From Minisyncoccota bacterium (GTDB lineage Bacteria; Patescibacteriota; Minisyncoccia; Phycocordibacterales; PALSA-1337), in assembly GCA_017991475.1 (NCBI GenBank), contig JAGOQK010000002.1, positions 23,673 through 87,672 of the forward strand: DNA of 64,000 bases, read 5' to 3'. Shown in pieces: positions 5,544 through 60,208 of this stretch. The translations under genes were made by a program, and so were the position numbers. The notes beneath the pieces are model-generated. The model was not told where the DNA came from. It searched no databases and saw only the letters and a list, made by a program, of their open reading frames with translations. Positions within the stretch are counted from its first letter, which is position 1. The number at the start of each line of letters is the position of its first letter.

Positions 5544-6923
5544 TTGTACAATCACCCCAAACCCAGTAGAATATCCCTCATGACCTCGCTCGAAAAGAAA
5601 TCAAAGCCTTCATTTGTCATACAAGGCCTCGGGGGCAAGAGAACCCTCAAGGGAACTATCCGTATCAATGGCGCCAAGAATGCTGCACTCAAGGCCATGG
5701 CTGCTGCAGTACTCTTCGGTGGGCCAGTGGAGCTTCAAAACATTCCTGATAATGCGGATATAGGGACGATGGGAGAAGTGCTCAGAAGACTTGGGGCGGA
5801 TGTCAAAGTTCAAAGTTCAAATGACAAAGATGAATCGCATGGTTTAACTTTAACTATTGATTCAACAACGATTAACTCGACGGATATAGACCAGGAATTG
5901 GCGGGAGGGATGAGGGCATCTGTTGTGTTGACTGGACCACTTCTCGCACGATATGGGAAAGTCAGTTTTCCGGCACCAGGGGGATGTGTTATCGGCGCAC
6001 GCCCAATCGATCTTTTCCTCTCTGCATATGAACAGCTCGGTGCAACTGTTGAGGAGACTGAGTGCTTGTACAACATTCAAGGCAAGAAGTTGTCTCCGAA
6101 AGAAATAACGTTCAAGAAGATATCTGTTGGTGCTACTGAGACCCTCATGATGGCGGCAGTGCTCTTGGATGGTCAGACGATCCTCAATAACTGCGCGAAG
6201 GAGCCAGAAATTGTAAATGTCGCGGAATGGTTGAACGCGTGTGGTGCGAGTATCAAAGGTGCAGGAACTTCAACCATTGTGATTGATGGCACGAATGGAA
6301 GGTTGCTCTCGCCGAAAGTTCCGTTTGTCACGATTCCTGATCGCATCGAAGCGGGCAGTTTCATTCTTTTGGCCGCGTTGACTGCGGAGGATGTGGCTAT
6401 AGAAAACTGCGAACCGAAACATTTGGGCACGCTTCTGGATTTGTTACAAGGTTCCGGAGTGAATATGGAAATAGGTTCAACCTCTATTCGTGTCATCAAT
6501 GATCCAAAGTCTCCAACACCATTCAAGTCATTCAATATTGAAACTCGAGAATACCCAGGTTTCCCAACTGATATTCAGGCACCCGCAGTCGTTTTCCTCA
6601 CTCAAGCAGAGGGAACAAGCAAGGTCACCGAGACTATTTTTGAGGGAAGATTCAAATATATTGAGGATCTCATTGTCCTCGGTGCGAATATTACACCGGT
6701 AAGTCCTCAGGAAATTTCGGTAACTGGTCCGTGCGACCTGAAACAATCAACAGATAGTAGAGAATTGACTACACACGACATCCGAGCTGGTTTTGCTGTC
6801 GTGCTCGCGGCACTCATCGGAGAAGGGAAGTTTGTCGTGAATAATGTCCATCTTATCGATCGTGGGTACGAAAAGTTGGAGGAGCGACTCAGGGGTTTGG
6901 GTGCGGATATTGTGAGGGTTTAA
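5544..6923 (+). CDS. murA: UDP-N-acetylglucosamine 1-carboxyvinyltransferase
   Basis: IQGLGGKRTLKGTIRINGAKNAALKAMAAAVL...GARPIDLF... is the typical MurA/EPSP-synthase fold. The likely start is Met at 5580 (MTSLEKK). Confidence 0.9.
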   Translation: MYNHPKPSRISLMTSLEKKSKPSFVIQGLGGKRTLKGTIRINGAKNAALKAMAAAVLFGGPVELQNIPDNADIGTMGEVLRRLGADVKVQSSNDKDESHGLTLTIDSTTINSTDIDQELAGGMRASVVLTGPLLARYGKVSFPAPGGCVIGARPIDLFLSAYEQLGATVEETECLYNIQGKKLSPKEITFKKISVGATETLMMAAVLLDGQTILNNCAKEPEIVNVAEWLNACGASIKGAGTSTIVIDGTNGRLLSPKVPFVTIPDRIEAGSFILLAALTAEDVAIENCEPKHLGTLLDLLQGSGVNMEIGSTSIRVINDPKSPTPFKSFNIETREYPGFPTDIQAPAVVFLTQAEGTSKVTETIFEGRFKYIEDLIVLGANITPVSPQEISVTGPCDLKQSTDSRELTTHDIRAGFAVVLAALIGEGKFVVNNVHLIDRGYEKLEERLRGLGADIVRV

Positions 6924-7035
6924 AACACAAAATCCGCCGGAGCGGATATGTGCTTTGCGGATTCTGATTATAACCAGTTCCACCTCGTCAGCTATGCAGA
7001 TAGTATATTCTTCTTTATTTATGAAGTCAATTCTG

Positions 7036-7105
7036 TGGACCCAGCGGGAGTCGAACCCGCAGATTCTAGCTGACGAGGTAGAATCGGAGACCACTCCGTG
7101 GGCCC
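7036..7105 (-). tRNA. tRNA-like gene with a non-canonical anticodon arm
   Basis: Acceptor stem GGGCCCA/TGGGTCC is perfect. T arm GCGGG-TTCGACT-CCCGC is perfect. The D arm is short (GGAG-TGGT-CTCC). In place of a 5-bp/7-nt anticodon arm there is a 7-bp stem GATTCTA/TAGAATC with a 10-nt loop CCTCGTCAGC and a 1-nt variable region. The isotype cannot be assigned. Confidence 0.4.
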
Positions 7106-7258
7106 ACTGACAGATTTCTCTGTCCTAATAAGTATAAATGTCCGAAATGAAGAATTAGTGATGAAGTAATAGAGATTTCGTGATAAAGCACTTTTCATGT
7201 TCTAATATTTCTGCAATTGAAGACATCTCACAGTGTGATATAGTCTTTACTACCTTTC

Positions 7259-8272
7259 ATGAGCATTTTCTCCCCAAAACTCGGCATTGACCTAGGTACT
7301 GCAAATACTCTGGTATTCCTGCCGGGTAAAGGAATTGTTTTGAACGAACCTTCAGTCGTCGCTATCTCCGAAGTCGACAAGAAAGTTCTTGCCGTAGGGA
7401 ATGAAGCAAAAGAGATGGTTGGCCGTACACCCGATAGTATTGTCGCGTATCGACCTATGCGCGATGGTGTCATTGCCGACTATCGTGTGACTGAGGCCAT
7501 GCTCCGCTATTTCATCGACAAGGCTTTGGGACGCTGGACTCTCTTCAAGCCTGATGTGATGGTCTCAGTTCCTGCAGGAATTACTTCTACTGAACGTCGT
7601 GCGGTCGTCGAGGCGGCTCTCCGTGCAGGTGCCAAGAATGCCTATGTGGTCAAAGAACCTATTCTCGCCGCTATCGGTGCAGGCATACCGATCCAGGAAC
7701 CTCGTGGACATATGATCGTAGATATCGGAGGAGGTACGACTGACGTTGCGGTGATCTCACTAGGCGGCATTGTCGCATCCACCTCGGTCAAGTGTGCCGG
7801 GAACAAGACTGATGCCGCAATCGCCGACTATGTGAAGAAAACATTTAACCTCGCGATTGGTGATCACATGGCAGAAATCATCAAGATCAATATCGGCTCT
7901 GCAATTCCTCTCGAGCAGGAACTTTCAATGCAAGTGAAGGGTCGTGATTTCATTTCTGGTCTGCCGCGTTCGACCGAGATAAAAACCAATGAGATTGTAA
8001 AAGCTATCGCGGGGCCACTACGCGAGATGATCAAAGCAATCAAGGATGTTCTCCAGGAGACTCCTCCAGAATTGGCTGCTGATATCATCGATCAGGGAAT
8101 TACGCTCACCGGAGGCTCGTCACTTCTTCGTAATTTGCCAGAATTGGTCTTCCGCCGTACGGGTGTGAAGGCACAACTTGCCGAGGAACCGCTTCTTTGT
8201 GTCGCAAAGGGGACTGGTATTGCACTTGATCATTTGGATACATATAAGAAGACGATTATAAGTAAGAGGTAA
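7259..8272 (+). CDS. mreB: MreB/Mbl-family actin homologue (paralogue 1)
   Basis: GIDLGTANTLVF...NEPSVVAI...DIGGGTTDVAVISLGGIV... carries all the actin-fold phosphate and adenosine motifs. Confidence 0.9.
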   Translation: MSIFSPKLGIDLGTANTLVFLPGKGIVLNEPSVVAISEVDKKVLAVGNEAKEMVGRTPDSIVAYRPMRDGVIADYRVTEAMLRYFIDKALGRWTLFKPDVMVSVPAGITSTERRAVVEAALRAGAKNAYVVKEPILAAIGAGIPIQEPRGHMIVDIGGGTTDVAVISLGGIVASTSVKCAGNKTDAAIADYVKKTFNLAIGDHMAEIIKINIGSAIPLEQELSMQVKGRDFISGLPRSTEIKTNEIVKAIAGPLREMIKAIKDVLQETPPELAADIIDQGITLTGGSSLLRNLPELVFRRTGVKAQLAEEPLLCVAKGTGIALDHLDTYKKTIISKR

Positions 8273-8276
8273 AATA

Positions 8277-8483
8277 ATGGAACAATCAAAACTATCTAGG
8301 TTTTTTAAACATAAGACAGGCGGACCCCTACATGCTCCAGTATGGTACGTTTTTCTTGTTGCCCTGTTGGGAATAGTTATCTTTGTGTCAGATAAATTGA
8401 ACTTATTATCTGGCTCTGGATTTATGTACCTAATATTAGTTTTCCTCTGTGCAGCACTTCTATTACTTAGAAAGTATCGCTAA
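8277..8483 (+). CDS. small membrane protein (2 TM)
   Basis: Starts 5 nt after the mreB paralogue-1 stop. Two hydrophobic helices. No homology recognised. Confidence 0.35.
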   Translation: MEQSKLSRFFKHKTGGPLHAPVWYVFLVALLGIVIFVSDKLNLLSGSGFMYLILVFLCAALLLLRKYR

Positions 8484-8571
8484 TTTTCCCTAAAAAGTAG
8501 AGGTTGAACCTCTAAAATATGACTATGTTGAGGTATATTTTGGCTTTTTTCATAGAAAAGACTGTTTATGC

Positions 8572-8600
8572 TTGACAAATATACCGATAGGTGCTACTAT
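8572..8600 (+). promoter_or_regulatory. sigma-70-type promoter (TTGACA-17-TACTAT with an extended -10 TG)
   Basis: TTGACA at 8572-8577, a 17-nt spacer ending in TGc, then TACTAT at 8595-8600. Confidence 0.5.
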
Positions 8601-8606
8601 ATAAAT

Positions 8607-8955
8607 GAATCGTTCCTACTGGGAATCATGTGGCAAATCCCAAGGAGTGCTCAAAAAAGCACAGGTTCAGGTCGACACCAAATGGTCAGGCAATTCTGCG
8701 CCACATCTGACCAGATGTAGAATAGGAGTCACGCTTAACAGGTGATGATTCCCATCCGATCCACGGGGTGATATGTCTCTCCAGTAGTCTGGCAACAGAG
8801 GGGAATAGACTAAGATTCTAAAGAACAGGGGTGAGAGTCGGACATTGTGGTTAGTTCAGGCTCAATAGTTCATTATCGATGAAGGTCATGAAGATCACCA
8901 CAATCTTATGTGATCAAACTGGGTGCGTCGGCTTCGGCTGGCGCACCCTTTTCTC
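8607..8955 (+). ncRNA. candidate ~350-nt non-coding RNA or long structured leader
   Basis: 425-nt interval with no ORF of at least 60 aa on either strand. Bracketed by a consensus promoter and a 12-bp GC-rich hairpin with a UUCG loop plus a T-tract at 8921-8960. Contains several internal hairpins. No RNase P, tmRNA, SRP or T-box signature motifs were recognised. Confidence 0.35.
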
Positions 8956-8960
8956 TTTGC
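8921..8960 (+). terminator. intrinsic terminator
   Basis: GGGTGCGTCGGC-TTCG-GCTGGCGCACCC (12 bp including G.U pairs, UUCG tetraloop) followed by TTTTCTCTTT. It lies inside the ORF-track start of holB, which argues for the later holB start. Confidence 0.7.
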
Positions 8961-8984
8961 GTGAATTTAAAGTACAATGTTTCT

Positions 8985-9674
8985 ATGAATTATAACAACC
9001 TCTCCCACCACGCCTACCTCATCATCGGCAGCGACTCACATCGCCTCGATCTGATCTCCATTCTTGCAAAGGATCACAATATTCTCGCCCAAGCTAACCC
9101 AGACTTTTTTGACCGTTCATATGAAAACCTGACTATCGACGACTCACGAGAATTGAAATCTCTCCACAGTACTCGTCCGATTGGAATTACTGGAAAGAAG
9201 ATTTTCATCATTACAACCAACGCGGCGACTGTTGAAGCACAAAATGCACTTTTGAAACTACTTGAAGAACCTGCGGAGTATGCACATTTCTTTTTGATAG
9301 TTCCATCGGCGCATATTTTACTGCCGACGGTTAAATCACGAATGCAGGAAGTTGTCAGTGGTAAGTTGTCAGTTGTCAGTAAAAAAACTTTAGAACAATT
9401 GAATACTATCGAAGAGGTGCGGAAATTCCTGAAAATGACGCAAGCGAAAAGATTGGAAGTAGTAAAGAAGCTTGTAGAGGATATAACCAAAGAAAAAAAG
9501 ACTAAGCAGGACGTGATCAACTTCCTGGATGCGATCCAGGCTGTTGTCTATGAGGAAAAAGGCATCAAAGAAGGTGCGAAACCTCTTGAAGCTATCGAAA
9601 CTGCTCGAAAATATATCCATGATCGTGCACCGAGCGTGAAGATGCTCATGGAGTATGTGGCGTTGAATATATGA
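8985..9674 (+). CDS. holB: DNA polymerase III delta' subunit (AAA+ clamp-loader)
   Basis: HAYLIIGSD...IFIITTNAATVEAQNALLKLLEEPAEYAHFFLI...LPTVKSRMQEV is typical of delta'. Start placed at Met 8985, downstream of the terminator. Confidence 0.75.
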   Translation: MNYNNLSHHAYLIIGSDSHRLDLISILAKDHNILAQANPDFFDRSYENLTIDDSRELKSLHSTRPIGITGKKIFIITTNAATVEAQNALLKLLEEPAEYAHFFLIVPSAHILLPTVKSRMQEVVSGKLSVVSKKTLEQLNTIEEVRKFLKMTQAKRLEVVKKLVEDITKEKKTKQDVINFLDAIQAVVYEEKGIKEGAKPLEAIETARKYIHDRAPSVKMLMEYVALNI

Positions 9675-22332: not shown

Positions 22333-25300
22333 ATGATTTTACCCATGAAGAAACCTCAATCGAAAGCGAAGCTGCTCGGCGCATATGACCACAAGAAGGT
22401 AGAAGCAAAGTGGCAGAAGCAGTGGGACAAAACCAAAGCATTCAAAGCTACCGAAGATCCCAAGAAGAAGAAATTCTTTGGCTTGATTGAGTTCCCATAC
22501 CCATCAGGAGATGGTCTCCATGTCGGACATATCCGCTCCAACACAGCCATGGATATCATTGCTCGCAAGAGGCGCCGTGAGGGATACGAGGTGTTGTACC
22601 CAATAGGTTGGGATGCATTCGGTCTGCCAACTGAGAACTACGCTATCAAGACTGGCATCCAGCCTGCCATCGTTACCAAAAAGAACACCGACACATTCCG
22701 TCGCCAGCTCAAGGCACTCGGATTCTCTTTTGATTGGTCACGCGAAATCAACACAACTGATCCGAAGTATTACCGCTGGACACAGTGGATCTTTTTACAG
22801 TTCCTGAAAAAGGGATTGGCATACAAGAAGAAGATGACGATCAACTGGTGTCCCAAGGATCTCATCGGTCTTGCGAACGAAGAGGTGGTCAATGGATGCT
22901 GTGAGCGTTGTGGAACTCCTGTCGAGAAGCGCGACAAGGAGCAGTGGATGCTGGCGATAACAAAGTATGCTGATCGCCTCGACAAGGATCTTGATACGGT
23001 TGATTTTCTCGACAGGATAAAGACACAGCAGAGAAATTGGATAGGGAAGAGTGAAGGAGCGGAGATTAAATTCGAAGTTCGAATATCGAGATCCGAAGCA
23101 AATTCAAAATTAGAAGTACAAATACCTAAAAGGGAGATTACCGTCTTCACGACTCGCCCAGATACCCTCTTTGGTGTGACCTACGTGGTGCTTGCTCCTG
23201 AACATAAGCTCGTGGGTGAATTAATATCCACGATAGAAAATGCTGCAGAAGTTCGTGACTATATTTCAAAGTCCAAGCAGGAGACAGATATCCAAAGAAC
23301 CGACGCCTCAAAAGAAAAGTCAGGCGTGCAACTCAAGGGCATCATGGCCGTCAATCCTGTGAATGGCGAGGAAATCCCAGTCTGGATCTCCGACTATGTG
23401 CTCGCAGACTATGGTACAGGAGCTGTTATGGCTGTTCCTGCACATGATGATCGCGATTTTGAGTTTGCCCAGAAGTACAATCTACCGATCAAGACTGTCA
23501 TCGAGCCTCTCATTGTCAAAGAAGACGGCACTGATGCAGTCAGGAAAGATGCACCCTATGTCGAGCGCAATGCAGCAGTGTGTATCATCAAGCATTGGTC
23601 GGAGGACAAGTATCTCATGTCATTCTACAAAGCCAACGGCTGGAAAGGCTTTGTCGTGGGCGGAATTGAGAATGGTGAGAGCGTCGCAGTTACCGGCACT
23701 CGTGAGATTCATGAGGAGACGGGATACAAAAATGCAAAGTTCGTTCGTGAGGTCGGTACTATTCACTCAAAGTTCTTCCACGCAGTAAAATCTGTGAACA
23801 GGTTCGCTCACTTCAAGGTCGCATATTTCGAACTCTCCGATGGAGATCGTGACGAAATGGCTGAAGAGGAAAAGAAGCTTCATGATGTGGTCTGGCTTTC
23901 TCCCCAAGAAGTCACCACAGCAGTCAATCGCGAAGATATCAAGATCGCTTGGGACTTCTTCAATGGAAAAATTTCATATACAGGAAATGGTCTGCTCACA
24001 AATTCCAACTCATTTGATGGTAAGGATTCAGAATCAGTCAAAAAGGAAATCACCGAGAAGGCGGGTGGCAAGTGGGTTACCACATTCAAGCTCCGTGACT
24101 GGGTGTTCTCTCGCCAGCGTTATTGGGGAGAGCCGATACCAGTCGTACATTGTGATGTATGCGGTGTAGTTCCTGTCCCTGAAAAAGATCTTCCCGTCAA
24201 ACTCCCGAAGGTCAAGAATTATAAGCCGACAGAGACCGGCGAGTCACCACTTGCTGCTATTGAGAAGTGGGTGAATACCACTTGTCCCAATTGTGTCGCG
24301 AATAAGAAGAAACCAAAGTACCTCATCTTCGATTTTGATGGAGTGCTCGGAAACACGTGGACTGAATCAAATGAGGTCAAGGTTGTTATGGGTGATTCGG
24401 CGACTGTAGAGGATGCAGCGGCAGTCACGATGAAACATTTTGATAAGAAGCCATCTACAGAACGCAACCATTCGCTAACGACTGAGCAGTTGCAGAAGAA
24501 GCAAGAATGGATTACTACATTCGGAAAACATCTTTCCGAAACGGATTTTGGTTTGTTCAAAGGCTTTATTGCTGAACTGAAGAAGATCAAGAATGCAAAG
24601 TTTGCAGTCGTCTCATCAGGTTCATCACAGTATGTACTTCCTGCACTCAAAAAATCGGGGATTAAGTTCACACACATTCTTGCCTACGAAGATCACTACT
24701 CGAAGGAGGAAAAGGTAGAAAAAGTCTGTAAGGACTGGGGTATCTCACCGAAGGATGCATATTATTTTACCGATACTAAGGCGGACATTCTTGAGCTTCA
24801 GGATTTGATGGGTCGCGAGCGCATGATTGGATGTGCCTGGGGATGGCATGGATATGAAAAACTAAACGAGCTTCTTCCTGAAAAAATGATCCTTAGGGAA
24901 TTCAAAGACGTTCGCAAAGTCCTCAATCTTGACTGTCTTGCAAAGCGCGAAACAGATACGATGCCAAACTGGGCAGGTTCGAGCTGGTACTATCTCCGCT
25001 ACACAGATCCCAAAAATTCGAAAGAGTTCGCATCAATAGACAATCTCAAGTACTGGACTCCTGTCGACTGGTACAACGGCGGCATGGAGCATACAACTTT
25101 GCACTTGCTCTACTCTCGCTTCTGGCACAAATTCTTGTTCGACCTCGGACTCGTTCCGACCAGTGAGCCGTATCAGAAGAGGACATCTCACGGCCTCATC
25201 CTTGCCGCAGGTGGCGAGAAGATGTCCAAGTCAAAGGGTAATGTCGTGAACCCTGACAGCATCATCGAGACTGTCGGTGCAGATAGTTTGCGCCTGTATG

Positions 25301-25890
25301 AGATGTTCATGGGTCCATTTGATCAGCCGATTGCATGGAATACAGATAATATTGCGGGAGTGCGACGCTTTATTGAGAGAGTGTGGAAGCTCCGTGAGAA
25401 AATTCAGATAGGCACGGCCTCATCTAGGGATGCACAGAAAACCATCCACAAAACGATCAAGAAAGTAACTGAGGATATCGAAGCCATGCGTTTCAATACT
25501 GCAATCAGTTCACTTATGATCGCGCTCAATGAGCTTGAAAAGGTGGAATCGGTGACGGTTGAAAATTTTGAAGCTCTGCTCCAGCTCCTCGCTCCGTTTG
25601 CTCCACACGTCACTGAGGAGCTCTGGGCGTCACTTGGGTACAAGGATTCTATTCATGCATCACCATGGCCCGTATATGACCCTGCACAGGCAGTCGATAG
25701 TGAGGTGACTATCATGATCCAAATCAATGGCAAGACTCGTGGTTCATTTACCGCACCTATCGATACCTCGAAAGAGGAGCTTGAAAAACTCGCCAAGGAT
25801 TCACCGGAAGGAAAAAAGTGGTTGGAAGGTAAGTCCATCTCTAAAGTTATTGTAGTACCGAACAAGTTGGTGAACATTGTAGTCTTATAG
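22333..25890 (+). CDS. leuS: leucyl-tRNA synthetase with two inserted extra domains (Nudix and HAD)
   Basis: HIGH (PYPSGDGLHVGH), the editing region, KMSKS and the C-terminal anticodon-binding region are all present in one 1185-aa frame. An extra Nudix box lies at about 23570-23960 (GGIENGESVAVTGTREIHEETGY). An extra HAD motif-I segment lies at about 24300-24940 (LIFDFDGVLG), between CPNC and AKRETDTM. Confidence 0.9.
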   Translation: MILPMKKPQSKAKLLGAYDHKKVEAKWQKQWDKTKAFKATEDPKKKKFFGLIEFPYPSGDGLHVGHIRSNTAMDIIARKRRREGYEVLYPIGWDAFGLPTENYAIKTGIQPAIVTKKNTDTFRRQLKALGFSFDWSREINTTDPKYYRWTQWIFLQFLKKGLAYKKKMTINWCPKDLIGLANEEVVNGCCERCGTPVEKRDKEQWMLAITKYADRLDKDLDTVDFLDRIKTQQRNWIGKSEGAEIKFEVRISRSEANSKLEVQIPKREITVFTTRPDTLFGVTYVVLAPEHKLVGELISTIENAAEVRDYISKSKQETDIQRTDASKEKSGVQLKGIMAVNPVNGEEIPVWISDYVLADYGTGAVMAVPAHDDRDFEFAQKYNLPIKTVIEPLIVKEDGTDAVRKDAPYVERNAAVCIIKHWSEDKYLMSFYKANGWKGFVVGGIENGESVAVTGTREIHEETGYKNAKFVREVGTIHSKFFHAVKSVNRFAHFKVAYFELSDGDRDEMAEEEKKLHDVVWLSPQEVTTAVNREDIKIAWDFFNGKISYTGNGLLTNSNSFDGKDSESVKKEITEKAGGKWVTTFKLRDWVFSRQRYWGEPIPVVHCDVCGVVPVPEKDLPVKLPKVKNYKPTETGESPLAAIEKWVNTTCPNCVANKKKPKYLIFDFDGVLGNTWTESNEVKVVMGDSATVEDAAAVTMKHFDKKPSTERNHSLTTEQLQKKQEWITTFGKHLSETDFGLFKGFIAELKKIKNAKFAVVSSGSSQYVLPALKKSGIKFTHILAYEDHYSKEEKVEKVCKDWGISPKDAYYFTDTKADILELQDLMGRERMIGCAWGWHGYEKLNELLPEKMILREFKDVRKVLNLDCLAKRETDTMPNWAGSSWYYLRYTDPKNSKEFASIDNLKYWTPVDWYNGGMEHTTLHLLYSRFWHKFLFDLGLVPTSEPYQKRTSHGLILAAGGEKMSKSKGNVVNPDSIIETVGADSLRLYEMFMGPFDQPIAWNTDNIAGVRRFIERVWKLREKIQIGTASSRDAQKTIHKTIKKVTEDIEAMRFNTAISSLMIALNELEKVESVTVENFEALLQLLAPFAPHVTEELWASLGYKDSIHASPWPVYDPAQAVDSEVTIMIQINGKTRGSFTAPIDTSKEELEKLAKDSPEGKKWLEGKSISKVIVVPNKLVNIVVL

Positions 25891-26007
25891 AAACCGAGCG
25901 TGACGACATGTGTGCTCTCACGCTACATCGCAGAACGGTTCGCGAAAGTGTAGTGTACAAATACAACGATGTAGCGTGAGAGCACACATGTCGTCACGCT
26001 CGGTTTC
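25890..26007 (+). repeat. palindromic intergenic element, copy B
   Basis: Perfect 41-bp inverted arms at 25890-25930 and 25967-26007. Core at 25931-25966 is CAGAACGGT-tcgcgaaagtgta-GTGTACAAATACAA. The left arm begins on the last base of the leuS stop codon. Confidence 0.85.
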
Positions 26008-26089
26008 GCTCTATTTGACCAGATTTCCAAGATATGGTAGTATGATTCTATCAAGCCTGGGCATAGGGGATTAGCATATCCCCACAAGA

Positions 26090-27181
26090 TTGACTTTATT
26101 ACAACCAAGTGCTACAAATAGTAGCAATTACTTATCAGCGAATTACATGGCAACTACAACCATTTCGTTCAAGCCCAAGCAAATCGTCAAGAGACTCCTC
26201 GCCTCACTTCCTGACCGTGCCCGTGATGTTATTCTCTATCGTTACGGACTCGGTGCAGACACACGCCGCATGACCCTCGATGGTATCGGCAAGAAGTACA
26301 GCATTACTCGTGAGCGCGTACGCCAAATCGAGAACTACGCTCTCGGAATGATCCGCAAATCAGATGAGTACAAGCTTGAAAAAGCCGTATTCTCTGAAAT
26401 CGAAAACCTCCTTCATGCATTTGGTGGTGTCGTCGTCGAAGATGATTTCCTCGGACATCTCACCAAAGACAAGAGTCTCCAGAACCATATCCATTTCCTC
26501 CTTGTGATCGGCGAACCGTTCACCAAGAAGAAGGAAGACGACGAATTCAGTCATCGCTGGCACGTCAACGAGGCTCTCGCCAACCAGGTCGAGGATGCTC
26601 TTCGCAAGCTCTATGCCAATCTCAACAATCAAGATCTCCTTCCTGAATCAGAGATCATCAACAAGTTCCTCAATCATCTTGAAGGCGTCTCTGAGCGCTA
26701 CAAGAACCAGGAGATTATGAAGCGCTGGCTTGCCCTCTCAAAGTCGATCGGCAAGAATGCCCTCGGCGACTGGGGTACCGCCAAGTCATCAAACATCAAG
26801 ACCAAGGGTATGCGTGATTATGCGTTCCTCGTTATCAGGAAACATGGTTCACCGATACACTTCCGTGATGTTGCAAAACAGATCACCTCTATGTTCAACA
26901 AGAAAGCCCATGTCGCAACGACGCACAATGAGCTCATCAAGGATCCTCGTTTCGTTCTCGTTGGCCGCGGTCTCTATGCTCTCGCTGAGTGGGGATACGC
27001 TCCCGGTATCGTCCGCGATGTCATCCGTCACGTGATCGAGAAGAATGGCCCAATGACCAAGGATGAGATCGTCACCAAAGTCATGAAGGAACGCTATGTG
27101 AAGGAAAACACTATCGCCGTCAATCTTCAGAATCCAAAGTATTTCAAGAAGGACAAGGAAGGTAAATATTCCGCAGCGTAA
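26090..27181 (+). CDS. sigma-70 region-4-like HTH fused to a C-terminal HARE-HTH-like domain
   Basis: Region 4-like segment: ...LPDRARDVILYRYGL...TLDGIGKKYSITRERVRQIENYAL. C-terminal winged-helix resembles the HARE-HTH of RNAP delta/restriction enzymes: DYAFLVIRKHGSPIHFRDVAKQI...KDPRFVLVGRGLYALAEWGY. The likely start is Met at 26147. Confidence 0.55.
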   Translation: MTLLQPSATNSSNYLSANYMATTTISFKPKQIVKRLLASLPDRARDVILYRYGLGADTRRMTLDGIGKKYSITRERVRQIENYALGMIRKSDEYKLEKAVFSEIENLLHAFGGVVVEDDFLGHLTKDKSLQNHIHFLLVIGEPFTKKKEDDEFSHRWHVNEALANQVEDALRKLYANLNNQDLLPESEIINKFLNHLEGVSERYKNQEIMKRWLALSKSIGKNALGDWGTAKSSNIKTKGMRDYAFLVIRKHGSPIHFRDVAKQITSMFNKKAHVATTHNELIKDPRFVLVGRGLYALAEWGYAPGIVRDVIRHVIEKNGPMTKDEIVTKVMKERYVKENTIAVNLQNPKYFKKDKEGKYSAA

Positions 27182-37836: not shown

Positions 37837-38010
37837 GTAGTTGTAGCTGCAAATTTTTCATTCACAGAAATGAGTTTTTGTGGCATAGAATGTTGTTATT
37901 TTGAGCCACCGTTTTTCAAACTATACCACATCTGAAAAAGAAGTTGGGCTTCAGGAATTTCACGAATCGTTGATATGCCTCTGCGGGGTATTGTTACCAC
38001 ATAGCATCAG

Positions 38011-38037
38011 AACACCCTTATTTTTAGGGGTGTTTTT
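38011..38037 (+). terminator. intrinsic terminator
   Basis: ACACCC-ttattttta-GGGTGT followed by TTTTT. Confidence 0.6.
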
Positions 38038-38041
38038 GTGA

Positions 38042-38071
38042 TTGACAGATAGGTACTAAGTATGCTATAAT
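38042..38071 (+). promoter_or_regulatory. sigma-70 consensus promoter (TTGACA-18-TATAAT)
   Basis: TTGACA at 38042-38047 and TATAAT at 38066-38071. Confidence 0.5.
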
Positions 38072-38169
38072 AGTACTAAGTTAGTGAGGTCTTTGAGAAC
38101 TTGGATTGTGGAAGTGGGGTAATAAAGCACGTCGTTTTGTTATCTTGCAAACCACAATTCAAATAATTT

Positions 38170-38376
38170 ATGATTATCCATCTAATCGGCATAACATTCG
38201 GTATATTCCTGATTTGGGCAATCCTAGGACTCATTCCCGGGTTCATATCACTCTACATCCTCAATCGTTTAAACTATAACGAGAATGGATGGCAGACCAA
38301 AATCACTATCATCTGCGGAGGTCCGATTGTCTGGCTCTTTGACTTGGCTTTAGATGATCTTGTGAACAGAGGTTAA
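38170..38376 (+). CDS. small 2-TM membrane protein
   Basis: MIIHLIGITFGIFLIWAILGLIPGFISLYIL... Has its own promoter and a terminator at 38420-38450. Confidence 0.45.
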   Translation: MIIHLIGITFGIFLIWAILGLIPGFISLYILNRLNYNENGWQTKITIICGGPIVWLFDLALDDLVNRG

Positions 38377-38419
38377 TTGGTGACACCTTAAAACATTACA
38401 AGTCACTCGAGAATTTCCC

Positions 38420-38450
38420 CGGCGGTCAGCAATGACTGCCGGTTTTCTTT
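38420..38450 (+). terminator. intrinsic terminator
   Basis: CCGGCGGTCA-gcaa-TGACTGCCGG followed by TTTTCTTTT. Confidence 0.7.
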
Positions 38451-39712: not shown

Positions 39713-41140
39713 ATGCCCCGACGCGTCCAAGACATTGTACCCAACAATCATCGCTCCATCAGGGATATTCCTGTCGAGCGCAATGATATCCAAGCTCCTG
39801 TCGAGCCTCCACGCAAGCGCACTTCGGGCAAACCGATCACTGTCAGAAAGCCTGAAATGGAAATGCGCCGAGAAGTGCGTGAAGAGGATACTGCTGATGA
39901 AGCCCCTGAGCCCGTCAAGCGCGTATCCGTCACTCCGCCGAGCAGAAAGAAGAGATCTTCTGGATCAAAGAAGTTCATACTCATGCTTATGGGTATTGTG
40001 GTCATTGTCGCGGGAGCCGGGTATGTAGCCTCAGTATATTTCTCTCGAGCTGCATTCAGCATCGTCCCGAAATCTATACCTATCACTGTGAATGGGGCGT
40101 ACACTGCGCAACCTGCTGGAACCAAGAGTACCCTCACGTATGAACTCGCTGTCGTGAAGGGAAGCGCCAATGTCTCAGTTCCCGCAACCGATGGTCCAAG
40201 TATTTCTACTTCTGCGAAGGGTAGGATCACGGTGTACAACAAATATATCGCTACCGCTCAACGCCTCATCGCAGGGACTCGATTTGCGGATAGTACGGGT
40301 CGTATTTATAAGCTCACTGACTCTATTTCAGTACCTGGGTACACCACATCAGGCGGCACCATAGTTCCCGGCAGTATTACTGCATCCGTCGTAGCCGATC
40401 AGCCCGGTGAATCGTACAATCTGACCAAGAATGAAGCGACCGCCGACCTTACCATCGTCGCATACAAAGGAACACCTCGATATGAGACTGTCTACGGTAG
40501 GGTTTCGACCGATATTATCGGCGGATTCGTAGGTACGAAGAAAACCGTAAGTCCATCAGCCCTTGCGTCTACCACCGAAGAGCTCAAAGCCAAGATTGTT
40601 GCTTCGCTTTCTGAACAGATCCGAAATACTCTCCCTGAAGGTTATGTCATGTATCCAAATGCATATGTTCCCGTATTCTCGGCCGCTACTGTCGGAACAG
40701 GGGATCCCAAATCAGCTACAGTTACGCTTCAAGGAACTCTGTACGGAATTCTTTTCAAGAAGAGCGAACTCGTTGCGCGTGTAGCGGGTGAAGAAGCGAT
40801 CTCCATGTTTGATGGATTTGCCTTCGATACTCCTGGGTTTGAGTCACTCGATTTTAGTATTGCAAACCTCAAGGATTTCTCGCCTGAAAAGAAGAATACT
40901 CTCATCATCAAACTCAAGGGCGACGCTCATCTCGTCGGTTCGATACCTGTTGAGGAGCTCAAAAAGAAGCTTGCAGGACTCTCGCTTGCAGATACAAGCA
41001 GCGTACTTCGCCAGTACAAACCTGTTATAGAGATTGACAAAAGTTCTGGTGAAATCACTCCTCCGTGGTCCAAAGTTCCGAGCAATCCAGAGCGTATTCG
41101 CGTAGAAGTACAACCTACGAGCGGTACTCAAACTGAGTAA
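39713..41140 (+). CDS. bitopic membrane protein with a large beta-rich extracytoplasmic domain
   Basis: Basic/acidic cytoplasmic N-terminus. One TM helix (FILMLMGIVVIVAGAGYVASVYF). About 350 aa of Thr/Ser/Val-rich domain. Operonic with the actin-fold gene upstream. Confidence 0.4.
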   Translation: MPRRVQDIVPNNHRSIRDIPVERNDIQAPVEPPRKRTSGKPITVRKPEMEMRREVREEDTADEAPEPVKRVSVTPPSRKKRSSGSKKFILMLMGIVVIVAGAGYVASVYFSRAAFSIVPKSIPITVNGAYTAQPAGTKSTLTYELAVVKGSANVSVPATDGPSISTSAKGRITVYNKYIATAQRLIAGTRFADSTGRIYKLTDSISVPGYTTSGGTIVPGSITASVVADQPGESYNLTKNEATADLTIVAYKGTPRYETVYGRVSTDIIGGFVGTKKTVSPSALASTTEELKAKIVASLSEQIRNTLPEGYVMYPNAYVPVFSAATVGTGDPKSATVTLQGTLYGILFKKSELVARVAGEEAISMFDGFAFDTPGFESLDFSIANLKDFSPEKKNTLIIKLKGDAHLVGSIPVEELKKKLAGLSLADTSSVLRQYKPVIEIDKSSGEITPPWSKVPSNPERIRVEVQPTSGTQTE

Positions 41141-41249
41141 TAGTCGCATGACTACAACCGGAAGTGCGTTACTTCCAAGCAAGTAGTCGCATGACTATTG
41201 ACGAAATAGGTATACATCTGCTAAGATACCGAGACGCGCAAAATAACAG

Positions 41250-41483
41250 ATGGACACCGCGCCGCAACCCAAAAATAGTTCAAAAAATACCGCAAACGGC
41301 ATTGTCGTAGAGGCATTGCCTGATACGTTGTTCCGAGTGGAACTGAACGACTCGAAAGAGATCGTCCTTGCGTATCTCGCCGGCAAGATGCGTATGAATC
41401 GCATACGAGTCCTGATTGGCGACAAGGTTGAGCTAGAGTTGGATCCATATGGTGGCCGCGCTCGTATCACTAGACGTTCATAA
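41250..41483 (+). CDS. infA: translation initiation factor IF-1
   Basis: S1-like OB fold (…[52 protein letters not shown]…). Confidence 0.9.
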
Positions 41484-59487: not shown

Positions 59488-59955
59488 ATGCTTGAACTTA
59501 CAACTGGTGTGGTGTTCCTCATGTCATCTCTCTATGGTTCCGGACACAGCGACAATCACATCGACACGATTATTGCGAACTCCGACGCTCCGATAGAAGT
59601 GACCGCGAACGAAGCTCGCTCTCTGACAAGCTCAAAGCAGATGCAATCATATCTCCAGCAGGAGTACTTCGACACACCCGTCCTCATTGAGGTCGCGCGC
59701 TGTGAATCAGAGTACCGCCAGTTCGACTCGAACGGCAAAGTTATCCGAGGACGTATCGTTCCGGACGACATCGGCGTGATGCAGATCAACGAGTACTTCC
59801 ATGGCGAGACCGCCAAGAAGCTCGGCTACGACATCTATACCGCAGAAGGTAACGTCGCATACGCGAAGTATCTCTATGGTAAGTATGGACTCAAGCCCTG
59901 GTCAGCCTCAGCACCGTGTTGGAACAAAAATGGTGACATCGCTTTGGCAAAGTAA
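59488..59955 (+). CDS. secreted lysozyme-like/SLT-domain (lytic transglycosylase-like) protein
   Basis: Signal-peptide-like N-terminus. ...ARCESEYRQF...DIGVMQINEYFHG...YDIYTAEGNVAYAKYLY... resembles the SLT-family E-S...GLMQ...Y signature. Confidence 0.5.
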   Translation: MLELTTGVVFLMSSLYGSGHSDNHIDTIIANSDAPIEVTANEARSLTSSKQMQSYLQQEYFDTPVLIEVARCESEYRQFDSNGKVIRGRIVPDDIGVMQINEYFHGETAKKLGYDIYTAEGNVAYAKYLYGKYGLKPWSASAPCWNKNGDIALAK

Positions 59956-59989
59956 TTGAGTCTGGAAATTAGTAAACAGTAAACAGAGA

Positions 59990-60016
59990 GGCGCATCATA
60001 TATGGTGCGCTTTTTC
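59990..60016 (+). terminator. intrinsic terminator
   Basis: GCGCA-tcatatatgg-TGCGC followed by TTTTT. Confidence 0.55.
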
Positions 60017-60208
60017 TGTTTACAAATTTCTGGTTACTGTTTACTTATCGTGCTGTCTGCAGGGAAGAGAGGAGTAGAATAAATTCCAGCCCGAACCTTG
60101 GCCTGAATTCTCCACTCGATACCATGTCGCACAATATACATTAACTACCTTACCTAGGGTAAAAAATAAAGCCTCTGAGGCTTATGGGCTATATAATCTC
60201 TAGACAGT

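Follow-up and report, generated by a model that had tools for sequence, protein, structure and literature searches.

The 64,000-nucleotide (nt) stretch of DNA analysed here (positions 23,673 to 87,672 of contig JAGOQK010000002.1; hereafter the window) comes from an uncultured member of the Paceibacteria (Parcubacteria; Candidate Phyla Radiation (CPR)/Patescibacteria). Its HolB protein (8985-9674) is 100% identical to a protein of a 'Candidatus Pacebacteria bacterium' metagenome-assembled genome with the NCBI protein locus tag KBC33_01145, and the next relatives of HolB, at 84% identity or less, all belong to the Patescibacteria. The genome is compact, and the locus has the gene order murA (5544-6923), mreB (7259-8272), holB, frr, rseP and proS, with a 712-nt spacer between mreB and holB that is among the few large gaps of the genome. 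Within this spacer, at 8572-8960, an initial annotation made from the sequence alone had noted a strongly promoted and strongly terminated transcript unit of about 350 nt lacking open reading frames (ORFs), and had read it either as an unclassified structured small RNA (sRNA) or as a riboswitch-like or attenuator leader controlling holB-frr-rseP. We consider it here as a candidate non-coding RNA (ncRNA) gene with the following features.

8572 to 8600, plus strand: sigma-70 promoter, with -35 element TTGACA (8572-8577), a 17-nt spacer, TG (8592-8593) and -10 element TACTAT (8595-8600)
8605 (start), plus strand: 46-codon ATG ORF, 4 nt after the -10 element, coding score 0.02
8607 to 8920, plus strand: body of the predicted RNA of ~350 nt, non-coding and homologue-free, with a two-domain predicted fold
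8616 to 8787, plus strand: predicted domain 1, multibranched, in which CUACUGG (8616-8622) pairs with CCAGUAG (8781-8787)
8845 to 8903, plus strand: predicted domain 2, a long irregular hairpin in which UUGUGGU (8845-8851) pairs with ACCACAA (8897-8903) at a probability of 0.83-0.85
8921 to 8958, plus strand: intrinsic terminator, a perfect 12-base-pair (bp) stem GGGTGCGTCGGC-TTCG-GCTGGCGCACCC (8921-8948, -23.9 kcal/mol) followed by TTTTCTCTTT (8949-8958)
8973 to 8978, plus strand: -10 element of holB, TACAAT, 6 nt before the ATG at 8985 and the downstream limit of the RNA unit

The near-consensus, extended -10 promoter described initially is indeed present at 8572-8600. It matches the consensus at 10 of 12 positions, and sites of this quality (at least 10/12 overall with at least 5/6 in the -35 element) number only 13 on both strands of the window, five of which, this one included, carry the TG extension. 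Weak promoter-like matches near the unit occur at chance level (six seen, 5.8 expected), so that the site stands out by its quality and not by the local count. Because this genome spaces -10 element and start by 6-7 nt, we infer that transcription begins at about 8607-8608. The minus strand of the unit yielded no promoter and folds poorly.

The GC-rich UUCG hairpin with a T-tract just 5' of holB was likewise confirmed (8921-8958); the U-tract behind its stem is also given as UUUUCUCUUU. For comparison we gathered 130 related loci via HolB (cited below by L numbers), and the terminator is homologous to those of L084 and L088. Full-length HolB homologues support the start of holB at 8985. Shine-Dalgarno-like motifs precede none of the 51 genes of the window (0/51, compared with 11% of random positions). 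In 20 of the 51 a TAnnnT -10 element is located 4-8 nt before the start, whereas only 6.5% of random positions have one at that distance. By these counts the genome appears to run on largely leaderless, Shine-Dalgarno-free messenger RNAs (mRNAs). The -10 elements of leaderless genes are often TG-extended and lie 6-7 nt before the start codon in ~40% of genes; among genuine leaderless genes, 11 have a spacing of 6 nt and five one of 7 nt. With 6 nt between its -10 element and ATG, holB has the modal leaderless geometry of the genome and thus a promoter of its own downstream of the terminator, from which its mRNA is predicted to be leaderless. This layout is kept in relatives with and without the element.

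These observations bear on the possibility that the unit is a cis-acting module for holB-frr-rseP-proS, be it an attenuator or riboswitch leader, an insulator, or a modulator of the holB promoter via supercoiling or interference. The unit is co-directional with holB and in relatives always lies immediately 5' of it, its terminator U-tract abuts the weak holB promoter, and read-through RNA would be translatable in principle, since operon-internal genes are translated without Shine-Dalgarno motifs. In addition, when the fold is truncated before the 3' arm of the terminator, the 5' arm can pair with 8671-8679 (a 10-bp candidate, partner 8922-8932). However, the strongest duplex that the 5' arm can form upstream (-13.2 kcal/mol) is no better than in shuffled sequences (z +0.58; 70% of shuffles are as good), the candidate antiterminator is 240 nt away from the terminator, and the same test on 14 units was negative for 13, L088 being the exception. 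The holB promoter is found unchanged in element-free relatives, and five of nine close loci lack the element. An attenuator is disfavoured on the grounds that a promoter intervenes before holB, that no antiterminator was found and that no conserved ligand or effector domain, or aptamer-like sequence, occurs across relatives. The proposed leader function therefore did not hold up, nor did a conditional terminator, for which no antiterminator pairing beyond chance was detected, and we regard cis-action on holB as unlikely. Between the two initial readings the unclassified sRNA is the better supported, although its being structured is not demonstrated (see below).

No ORF of at least 60 amino acids (aa) is present in 8572-8960 on either strand (the longest measure 50, 46, 42 and 38 aa), and the hexamer coding score of the unit reaches a maximum of -0.01 over six frames, relative to eight held-out window genes of which seven score 0.2-0.77 and the eighth -0.12. 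This bears out the ORF-free description. A small protein might still be encoded by the 46-codon ORF at 8605, translated leaderless, or by short ORFs at 8568, 8879 or 8667 (minus strand), given that the ATG at 8605 is near the predicted start, that genes of this genome are as a rule translated leaderless and that another strongly promoted unit of the window (38042-38450) holds a plausible 68-aa membrane ORF. The 4 nt between -10 element and ATG, however, contrast with the 6-7 nt usual for the genome and imply that the predicted start falls inside or after the 8605 ATG; the coding score is also negligible. The ORF has no Pfam match, a word search of 5.8 billion proteins gave no homologue, and a comparison with 1.84 billion cluster representatives returned solely weak, repeat-driven matches inside proteins of 431-1708 aa (such as 9 of 21 residues identical to the repeated motif W-G-x-x-x-P-H-x-x-R-C). 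Nor do the window unit and the units of relatives have any ORF in common. We consider a protein product very unlikely; a conserved small protein, for instance from 8605, was what the initial annotation had held to be incompatible with an ncRNA, and since it was looked for and not found, the ncRNA reading survives. In terms of its sequence, the unit has the make-up of a stand-alone ncRNA or sRNA gene, namely its own promoter, its own intrinsic terminator and no translated ORF.

Known RNA families do not account for the unit. The Rfam search by cmscan that had been recommended found no family at the locus: over the whole window, Rfam 15 at gathering threshold identified one transfer RNA (tRNA; 797-869) only, and a search of 8400-9050 with permissive filters and an expectation value (E) of up to 10 gave just three chance matches to small nucleolar RNAs, all within holB. 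ARAGORN called no tRNA or transfer-messenger RNA (tmRNA) at the unit, and across the whole window and 16 related loci it called no tmRNA. Together these results uphold the earlier statement that signatures of RNase P, tmRNA, signal recognition particle (SRP) RNA, 6S RNA and T-box elements are absent. A tmRNA was rejected because ARAGORN made no call and because the RNA ends in an ordinary terminator. Neither blastn and nhmmer searches of the 130 loci, nor searches of phage and plasmid collections, nor a paralogue search of the window recovered a homologue or paralogue of the body, and tblastx against relatives found no match beyond the flanks. A very divergent housekeeping RNA (RNase P RNA, tmRNA, 6S or SRP RNA) could be missed by covariance models in this phylum, where RNAs can be aberrant, and ~350 nt with a stable-RNA-type promoter would suit RNase P RNA or tmRNA. 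Yet an essential RNA would stay homologous at 78-79% HolB identity, whereas this gene is absent at the locus in close relatives, there is no Rfam match even at E of up to 10, and the 3' end shows no T-arm or CCA and no pairing to the 5' end. This is the least probable of the explanations considered. A literature search on CPR ncRNAs or RNase P found nothing relevant.

The whole unit folds with a z-score of -3.3 on the plus strand, better than on the minus strand (-0.2 to -0.9). With the terminator removed (8606-8918), z is -1.43 and 7 of 100 shuffles fold equally well, meaning that the plus-strand score owes mostly to the terminator and that the internal hairpins do not demonstrably exceed chance; moreover, 3 of 35 other 355-nt windows of the genome fold more extremely than the unit. 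The test itself is weak, as the covariation-supported body of L102 (see below) scores only -0.8, and the low z of the window body is therefore not decisive either way. Both internal hairpins named in the initial annotation exist, TGGTCAG (8684-8690) pairing with CTGACCA (8709-8715) and GATCAC (8894-8899) with GTGATC (8911-8916), so that the description of the RNA as structured stands as far as hairpins go but is not borne out as a body fold beyond chance. Domain 1, a prediction only and without comparative support, holds hairpins at 8647-8662 and 8725-8752, with helix pair probabilities of 0.96-1.0, and competes with a perfect 10-bp helix (8620-8629/8745-8754, inverted repeat I2). Domain 2, also predicted, competes with the local GATCAC...GTGATC hairpin (8894-8916). 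The eight predicted hairpin loops of the RNA are CAAAAA, AAAU, GACC, AAC, AAAGAACA, AUC, GAUCAA and UUCG.

In relatives the mreB-holB spacer belongs mainly to one of two size classes, about 4-90 nt and about 350-1000 nt, although some spacers are intermediate or longer. Among nine sampled loci at 77-84% HolB identity, five have a short spacer (L081, 84%; L128 and L129, 81%; L086 and L089, 79%), and four of these (L081, L128, L086, L089) share a homologous junction consisting of the mreB stop, TTCTGG, TATACT, 6 nt and ATG. By contrast, L084 (79%) and L088/L130 (77-78%) contain a unit with the architecture of the window unit, in which TTGACA-17-TATGAT or TATACT is followed by an ORF-free body 240-360 nt long and by a terminator rich in GC, with A/T-rich sequence separating the latter from the holB -10 element. 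The same layout recurs in L100, L112, L101, L102, L105, L113, L111, L094, L002, L015 and L097, usually preceded by the mreB terminator, and at least 13 distinct relatives share the architecture at this slot, between the mreB terminator and the holB -10 element. The flanks are homologous: the 5' flank of the window unit (8500-8614) aligns with the post-mreB hairpin and promoter flank of L088 at 68%, and L084 can be aligned to the 3' flank of the unit (8923-8980). Global alignment of the body with those of L084, L088, L100 and L112, on the other hand, gives z-scores of -0.9 to +1.4, which is to say that they are unalignable, whereas the murA-mreB spacer of the same genomes aligns at z 25-32. The bodies of L084 and L088 fold far beyond chance (z -4.3 and -3.8). 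The comparative alignment proposed initially was therefore successful for the flanks but could yield no covariation for the window RNA, as in the nearest genomes the element is either missing or has another body. In a rough tree of HolB, every lineage with a unit has a sister lineage without one, an interleaving that implies repeated loss or gain, or recombination. Judged from these alignments, the mreB-holB spacer of the Paceibacteria is a hypervariable slot in which promoter flank and terminator are homologous between genomes while the body differs beyond recognition or is missing, and the occupant in the window is an orphan.

Several further observations concern the slot. It is sometimes multi-unit, with two tandem promoter-RNA-terminator units in L111 (114-936), and additionally includes a four-helix-bundle ORF (23S IVS/Avd-like) in L002 (1619-2985) and a NUDIX-like ORF in L112 (1460-2488); in more distant relatives it is occupied instead by a minus-strand membrane-protein gene of 145-190 aa. 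Two loci lacking the unit have a 470-550-nt rseP-proS spacer with tiny hydrophobic minus-strand ORFs (L081, 5520-5990; L128, 3440-3986), and in the window this spacer is 36 nt only. The promoter-RNA-terminator unit of the window is bracketed by a perfect 10-nt inverted repeat, TTCATAGAAA (8549-8558) and TTTCTATGAA (8980-8989), and that of L088 by a direct repeat matching at 11 of 12 positions, AATGGCTTTATG (1981-1992) and AATAGCTTTATG (2492-2503). Such repeats may be traces of insertion or duplication, though neither exceeds chance when taken alone. For pairs like the 10-nt repeat the estimated chance expectation is 0.3-0.5, no counterpart is seen in relatives, and as evidence of a mobile element the repeat is doubtful.

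The slots of five relatives harbour a structured RNA that we term family A (L101, 2040-2412; L102, 2083-2442; L105, 2093-2440; L113, 2040-2390; L111, 270-626). The bodies are homologous among the five loci, with transcripts of 500-750 nt, and their consensus fold comprises 86 pairs, 31 of which show compensatory changes compared with 4-13 for slid partners. The paired share of cells is 86% overall, compared with about 41% in slid controls, and none of 500 shuffles reaches the observed values, the structure having been derived from the same alignment on which it was tested. Three single-stranded motifs are invariant, namely GGAGAG, ACUCC in a hairpin loop and, ahead of the terminator, GGAAAUUGG. 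Scans of 12-20 related loci against Rfam 15 gave no match to family A. A covariance model built on the family A core (R1; 180 positions, 42 pairs) matches only its five training loci across the related loci, and with nhmmer the terminator alone matches in others. In 8600-8960 R1 finds no match even with filters off, its best window match (5.7 bits) lying elsewhere, which rules out the window RNA as a member of the family. The covariation in family A indicates that the slot does host real RNAs.

BoxA is the NusB/NusE site of ribosomal RNA (rRNA) leaders, and its Gram-positive form, GTTCTTTGAAAA, is the nearer one to a motif, GTTC[A/T]TTGAA, that recurs at the 5' ends of the units. At a threshold of 8/10 or better this motif occurs within the first 80 nt of 11 of 18 sampled units and in 6% of shuffles, the motif having been derived post hoc from the data in which it was counted. 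Carriers are ten units in relatives, including those of L002, L015, L101, L105, L111 (second unit, 687-910), L088, L084, L100 and L112, and the second strongly promoted unit of the window at 38042 (motif at 38088-38097); the match is perfect in four of them (L002, L015, L101 and the second unit of L111, L111b). Its resemblance to BoxA suggests that Nus-type antitermination may operate on untranslated RNAs in these genomes. The gamma-proteobacterial consensus is GYTCTTTAANA (PMC5725501).

The main rival to a functional RNA gene is a unit that is transcribed yet functionless, a decaying cassette whose promoter and terminator are remnants of a former RNA gene, or of a duplication or insertion at this site, and whose body is drifting or has been replaced. 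This would explain a body that cannot be aligned between genomes in which the murA-mreB spacer aligns well, that folds no better than chance and whose presence and absence interleave on the HolB tree as expected of something easily lost; an orphan 68-codon ORF also adjoins the unit. Unselected signals decay fast, however, and here the near-consensus -35, TG and -10 elements and the 12-bp UUCG terminator are intact, in one of the few large gaps of a compact genome and in a slot whose other occupants are demonstrably structured RNAs. We regard a functionless cassette as a real but minority possibility. Still more tentatively, and at present doubtful, the mreB-holB spacer might be a dedicated expression socket that retains a strong, conserved promoter flank and a conserved terminator, and in which unrelated structured RNAs (140-750 nt) are swapped in, lost or rapidly reinvented. 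If so, it would be a hotspot for RNA cassettes, perhaps driven by phage or host conflict, and the window RNA would be one functional cassette without a described relative.

Overall, we favour a stand-alone, lineage-specific ncRNA gene, to which we assign a probability of roughly 55%; we consider it less likely that the unit regulates holB in cis, encodes a small protein or is a divergent housekeeping RNA. A number of results weigh against such a gene. Sister lineages manage without the unit, which is therefore dispensable. Neither conservation nor covariation of the body was found among the 130 loci, only the flanks being conserved, and as homologues are absent wherever they were searched for, there is no sign of selection on the body. 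Its fold without the terminator is within the range of shuffles, it is not recognized by R1, and the 5' end of the RNA is without the BoxA-like motif, the best match in the unit being 7/10 and located at +268. Pairing of the RNA with mRNA 5' ends within the window is no better than that of shuffled sequences.

If the unit is indeed an ncRNA gene, RNA polymerase would start at about 8607 from the near-consensus extended -10 promoter, some 350 nt would be transcribed that are not expected to be read by ribosomes, and transcription would stop at what is probably a constitutive intrinsic terminator (8921-8958), with holB expressed separately and leaderless from its own -10 element (8973-8978). Both transcription of the unit and action of the RNA in trans are what we infer. 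A protein-binding or regulatory RNA seems more likely than a base-pairing sRNA, because the promoter is strong and of the stable-RNA type, the RNA is too long for a seed-pairing sRNA and no local mRNA pairing exceeds chance. CPR bacteria are uncultured symbionts with tiny genomes and few protein regulators, and to our knowledge almost nothing is known of their ncRNAs. If expressed, the RNA would be an abundant addition to a compact genome that otherwise appears to rely on leaderless, Shine-Dalgarno-free mRNAs. The interest of the unit lies mainly in this scant knowledge of CPR ncRNAs, in the slot and in the new RNA and BoxA-like motif of its relatives; indeed, these by-products, a recurrent, hypervariable RNA slot beside core replication and translation genes, at least one new and large covariation-supported RNA in relatives and a BoxA-like motif at the 5' ends of many of the transcripts, may outweigh the element itself.

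Two features lie between mreB and the promoter.

8277 to 8483, plus strand: 68-codon hydrophobic ORF (ORF68), an orphan directly 3' of the mreB stop
8498 to 8514, no strand assigned: hairpin TAGAGGTTGAACCTCTA, 5' of the promoter, called on the minus strand, where its U-run is better

ORF68 has a coding score of 0.09, a sub-threshold Pfam match only and zero homologues among 5.8 billion proteins, and the stretch of ~215 nt that contains it is missing in L088 and L084, making it doubtful as a gene. A type I toxin-antitoxin pair of ORF68 and the RNA was rejected, since no inverted repeat joins 8277-8483 with 8606-8920 and ORF68 is itself doubtful. The hairpin at 8498-8514 looks like a terminator closing the mreB/ORF68 transcript, and relatives have a terminator hairpin at the equivalent position after mreB.

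Other candidate units were noted in the window. The murA-mreB spacer (6924-7258; 336 nt, ~67% conserved in relatives) contains on the minus strand, at 7036-7106, a tRNA-like cloverleaf that is called neither by ARAGORN nor by Rfam at gathering threshold. Its acceptor stem is 9 bp long, its D arm reads GGAG-UGGU-CUCC, its T arm is canonical, and its 'anticodon' stem of 7 bp carries a loop of 10 nt, CCUCGUCAGC. The minimum free energy of the fold is -38.1 kcal/mol (z -3.5). With the tRNA-Sec model the cloverleaf reaches 21.5 bits, and the homologous positions of relatives match tmRNA or tRNA models at 21-30 bits. Also on the minus strand, at 6925-7030, the promoter TTGACT-17-TATACT (7030 to 7002) precedes ~70 nt that lead to the hairpin UCCGC-UCCG-GCGGA, whose U-run ends at the murA stop; the arrangement could represent either a small sRNA unit in antisense orientation or a terminator working in both directions. 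The second strongly promoted unit (38042-38450) has a perfect TTGACA-18-TATAAT promoter with TG, the BoxA-like sequence GGTCTTTGAG at +17, a 68-aa ORF (38170-38376) with two transmembrane segments and no Shine-Dalgarno motif, and a terminator at 38419-38442. Next to it (~37880-38036) is a small unit of ~140 nt with a -10 element and a terminator, and over its first 94 nt (37854-37947) it matches the holB-frr spacer of L086 and L089 with 78% identity (E 8e-16), so that this small non-coding unit sits in different neighbourhoods in related genomes. A perfect inverted repeat of ~41 bp with a ~36-nt loop (25890-26007) lies right behind the stop of a 1185-aa ORF; the surrounding 25800-26155 folds at a z of about -12.5, and the repeat has no match in related loci. 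Two further stretches fold unusually well (41100-41455, z -4.2; 59800-60155, z -3.8).

Compared with known systems, the unit is real but unclassified, an orphan ncRNA candidate of a familiar general kind. It resembles 6S RNA (SsrS), Ms1 and sRNA genes in general in having a sigma-70 promoter, an intrinsic terminator and a length of a few hundred nt, and in being intergenic, non-coding and poorly conserved. Unlike those stand-alone ncRNA genes it is homologue-free, such that no family can be defined, and unlike 6S RNA it has no covariance-model match and a predicted two-domain multibranched fold instead of a rod with a central bubble. With CsrB/RsmZ it shares a length of ~350 nt, many hairpins, a strong promoter and terminator, rapid turnover and a length that varies between relatives, but the GGA motif is found in 0 of 8 predicted hairpin loops, and the only rsmX match (16.5 bits) lies in the murA-mreB spacer and not in the unit. 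Attenuators and riboswitch leaders likewise place a strong intrinsic terminator directly 5' of, and co-directional with, an operon; here, however, holB has its own leaderless promoter, no antiterminator beyond chance and no conserved aptamer are found, and the element is missing in sister genomes. As to BoxA/Nus leaders (rRNA operons, suhB), the BoxA-like motif is shared by the units of relatives and by the 38042 unit, but not by the window RNA. Family A has the position, promoter type and orientation of the unit and a homologous terminator, but differs in its 500-750-nt transcripts and in a core that R1 does not detect in 8600-8960.

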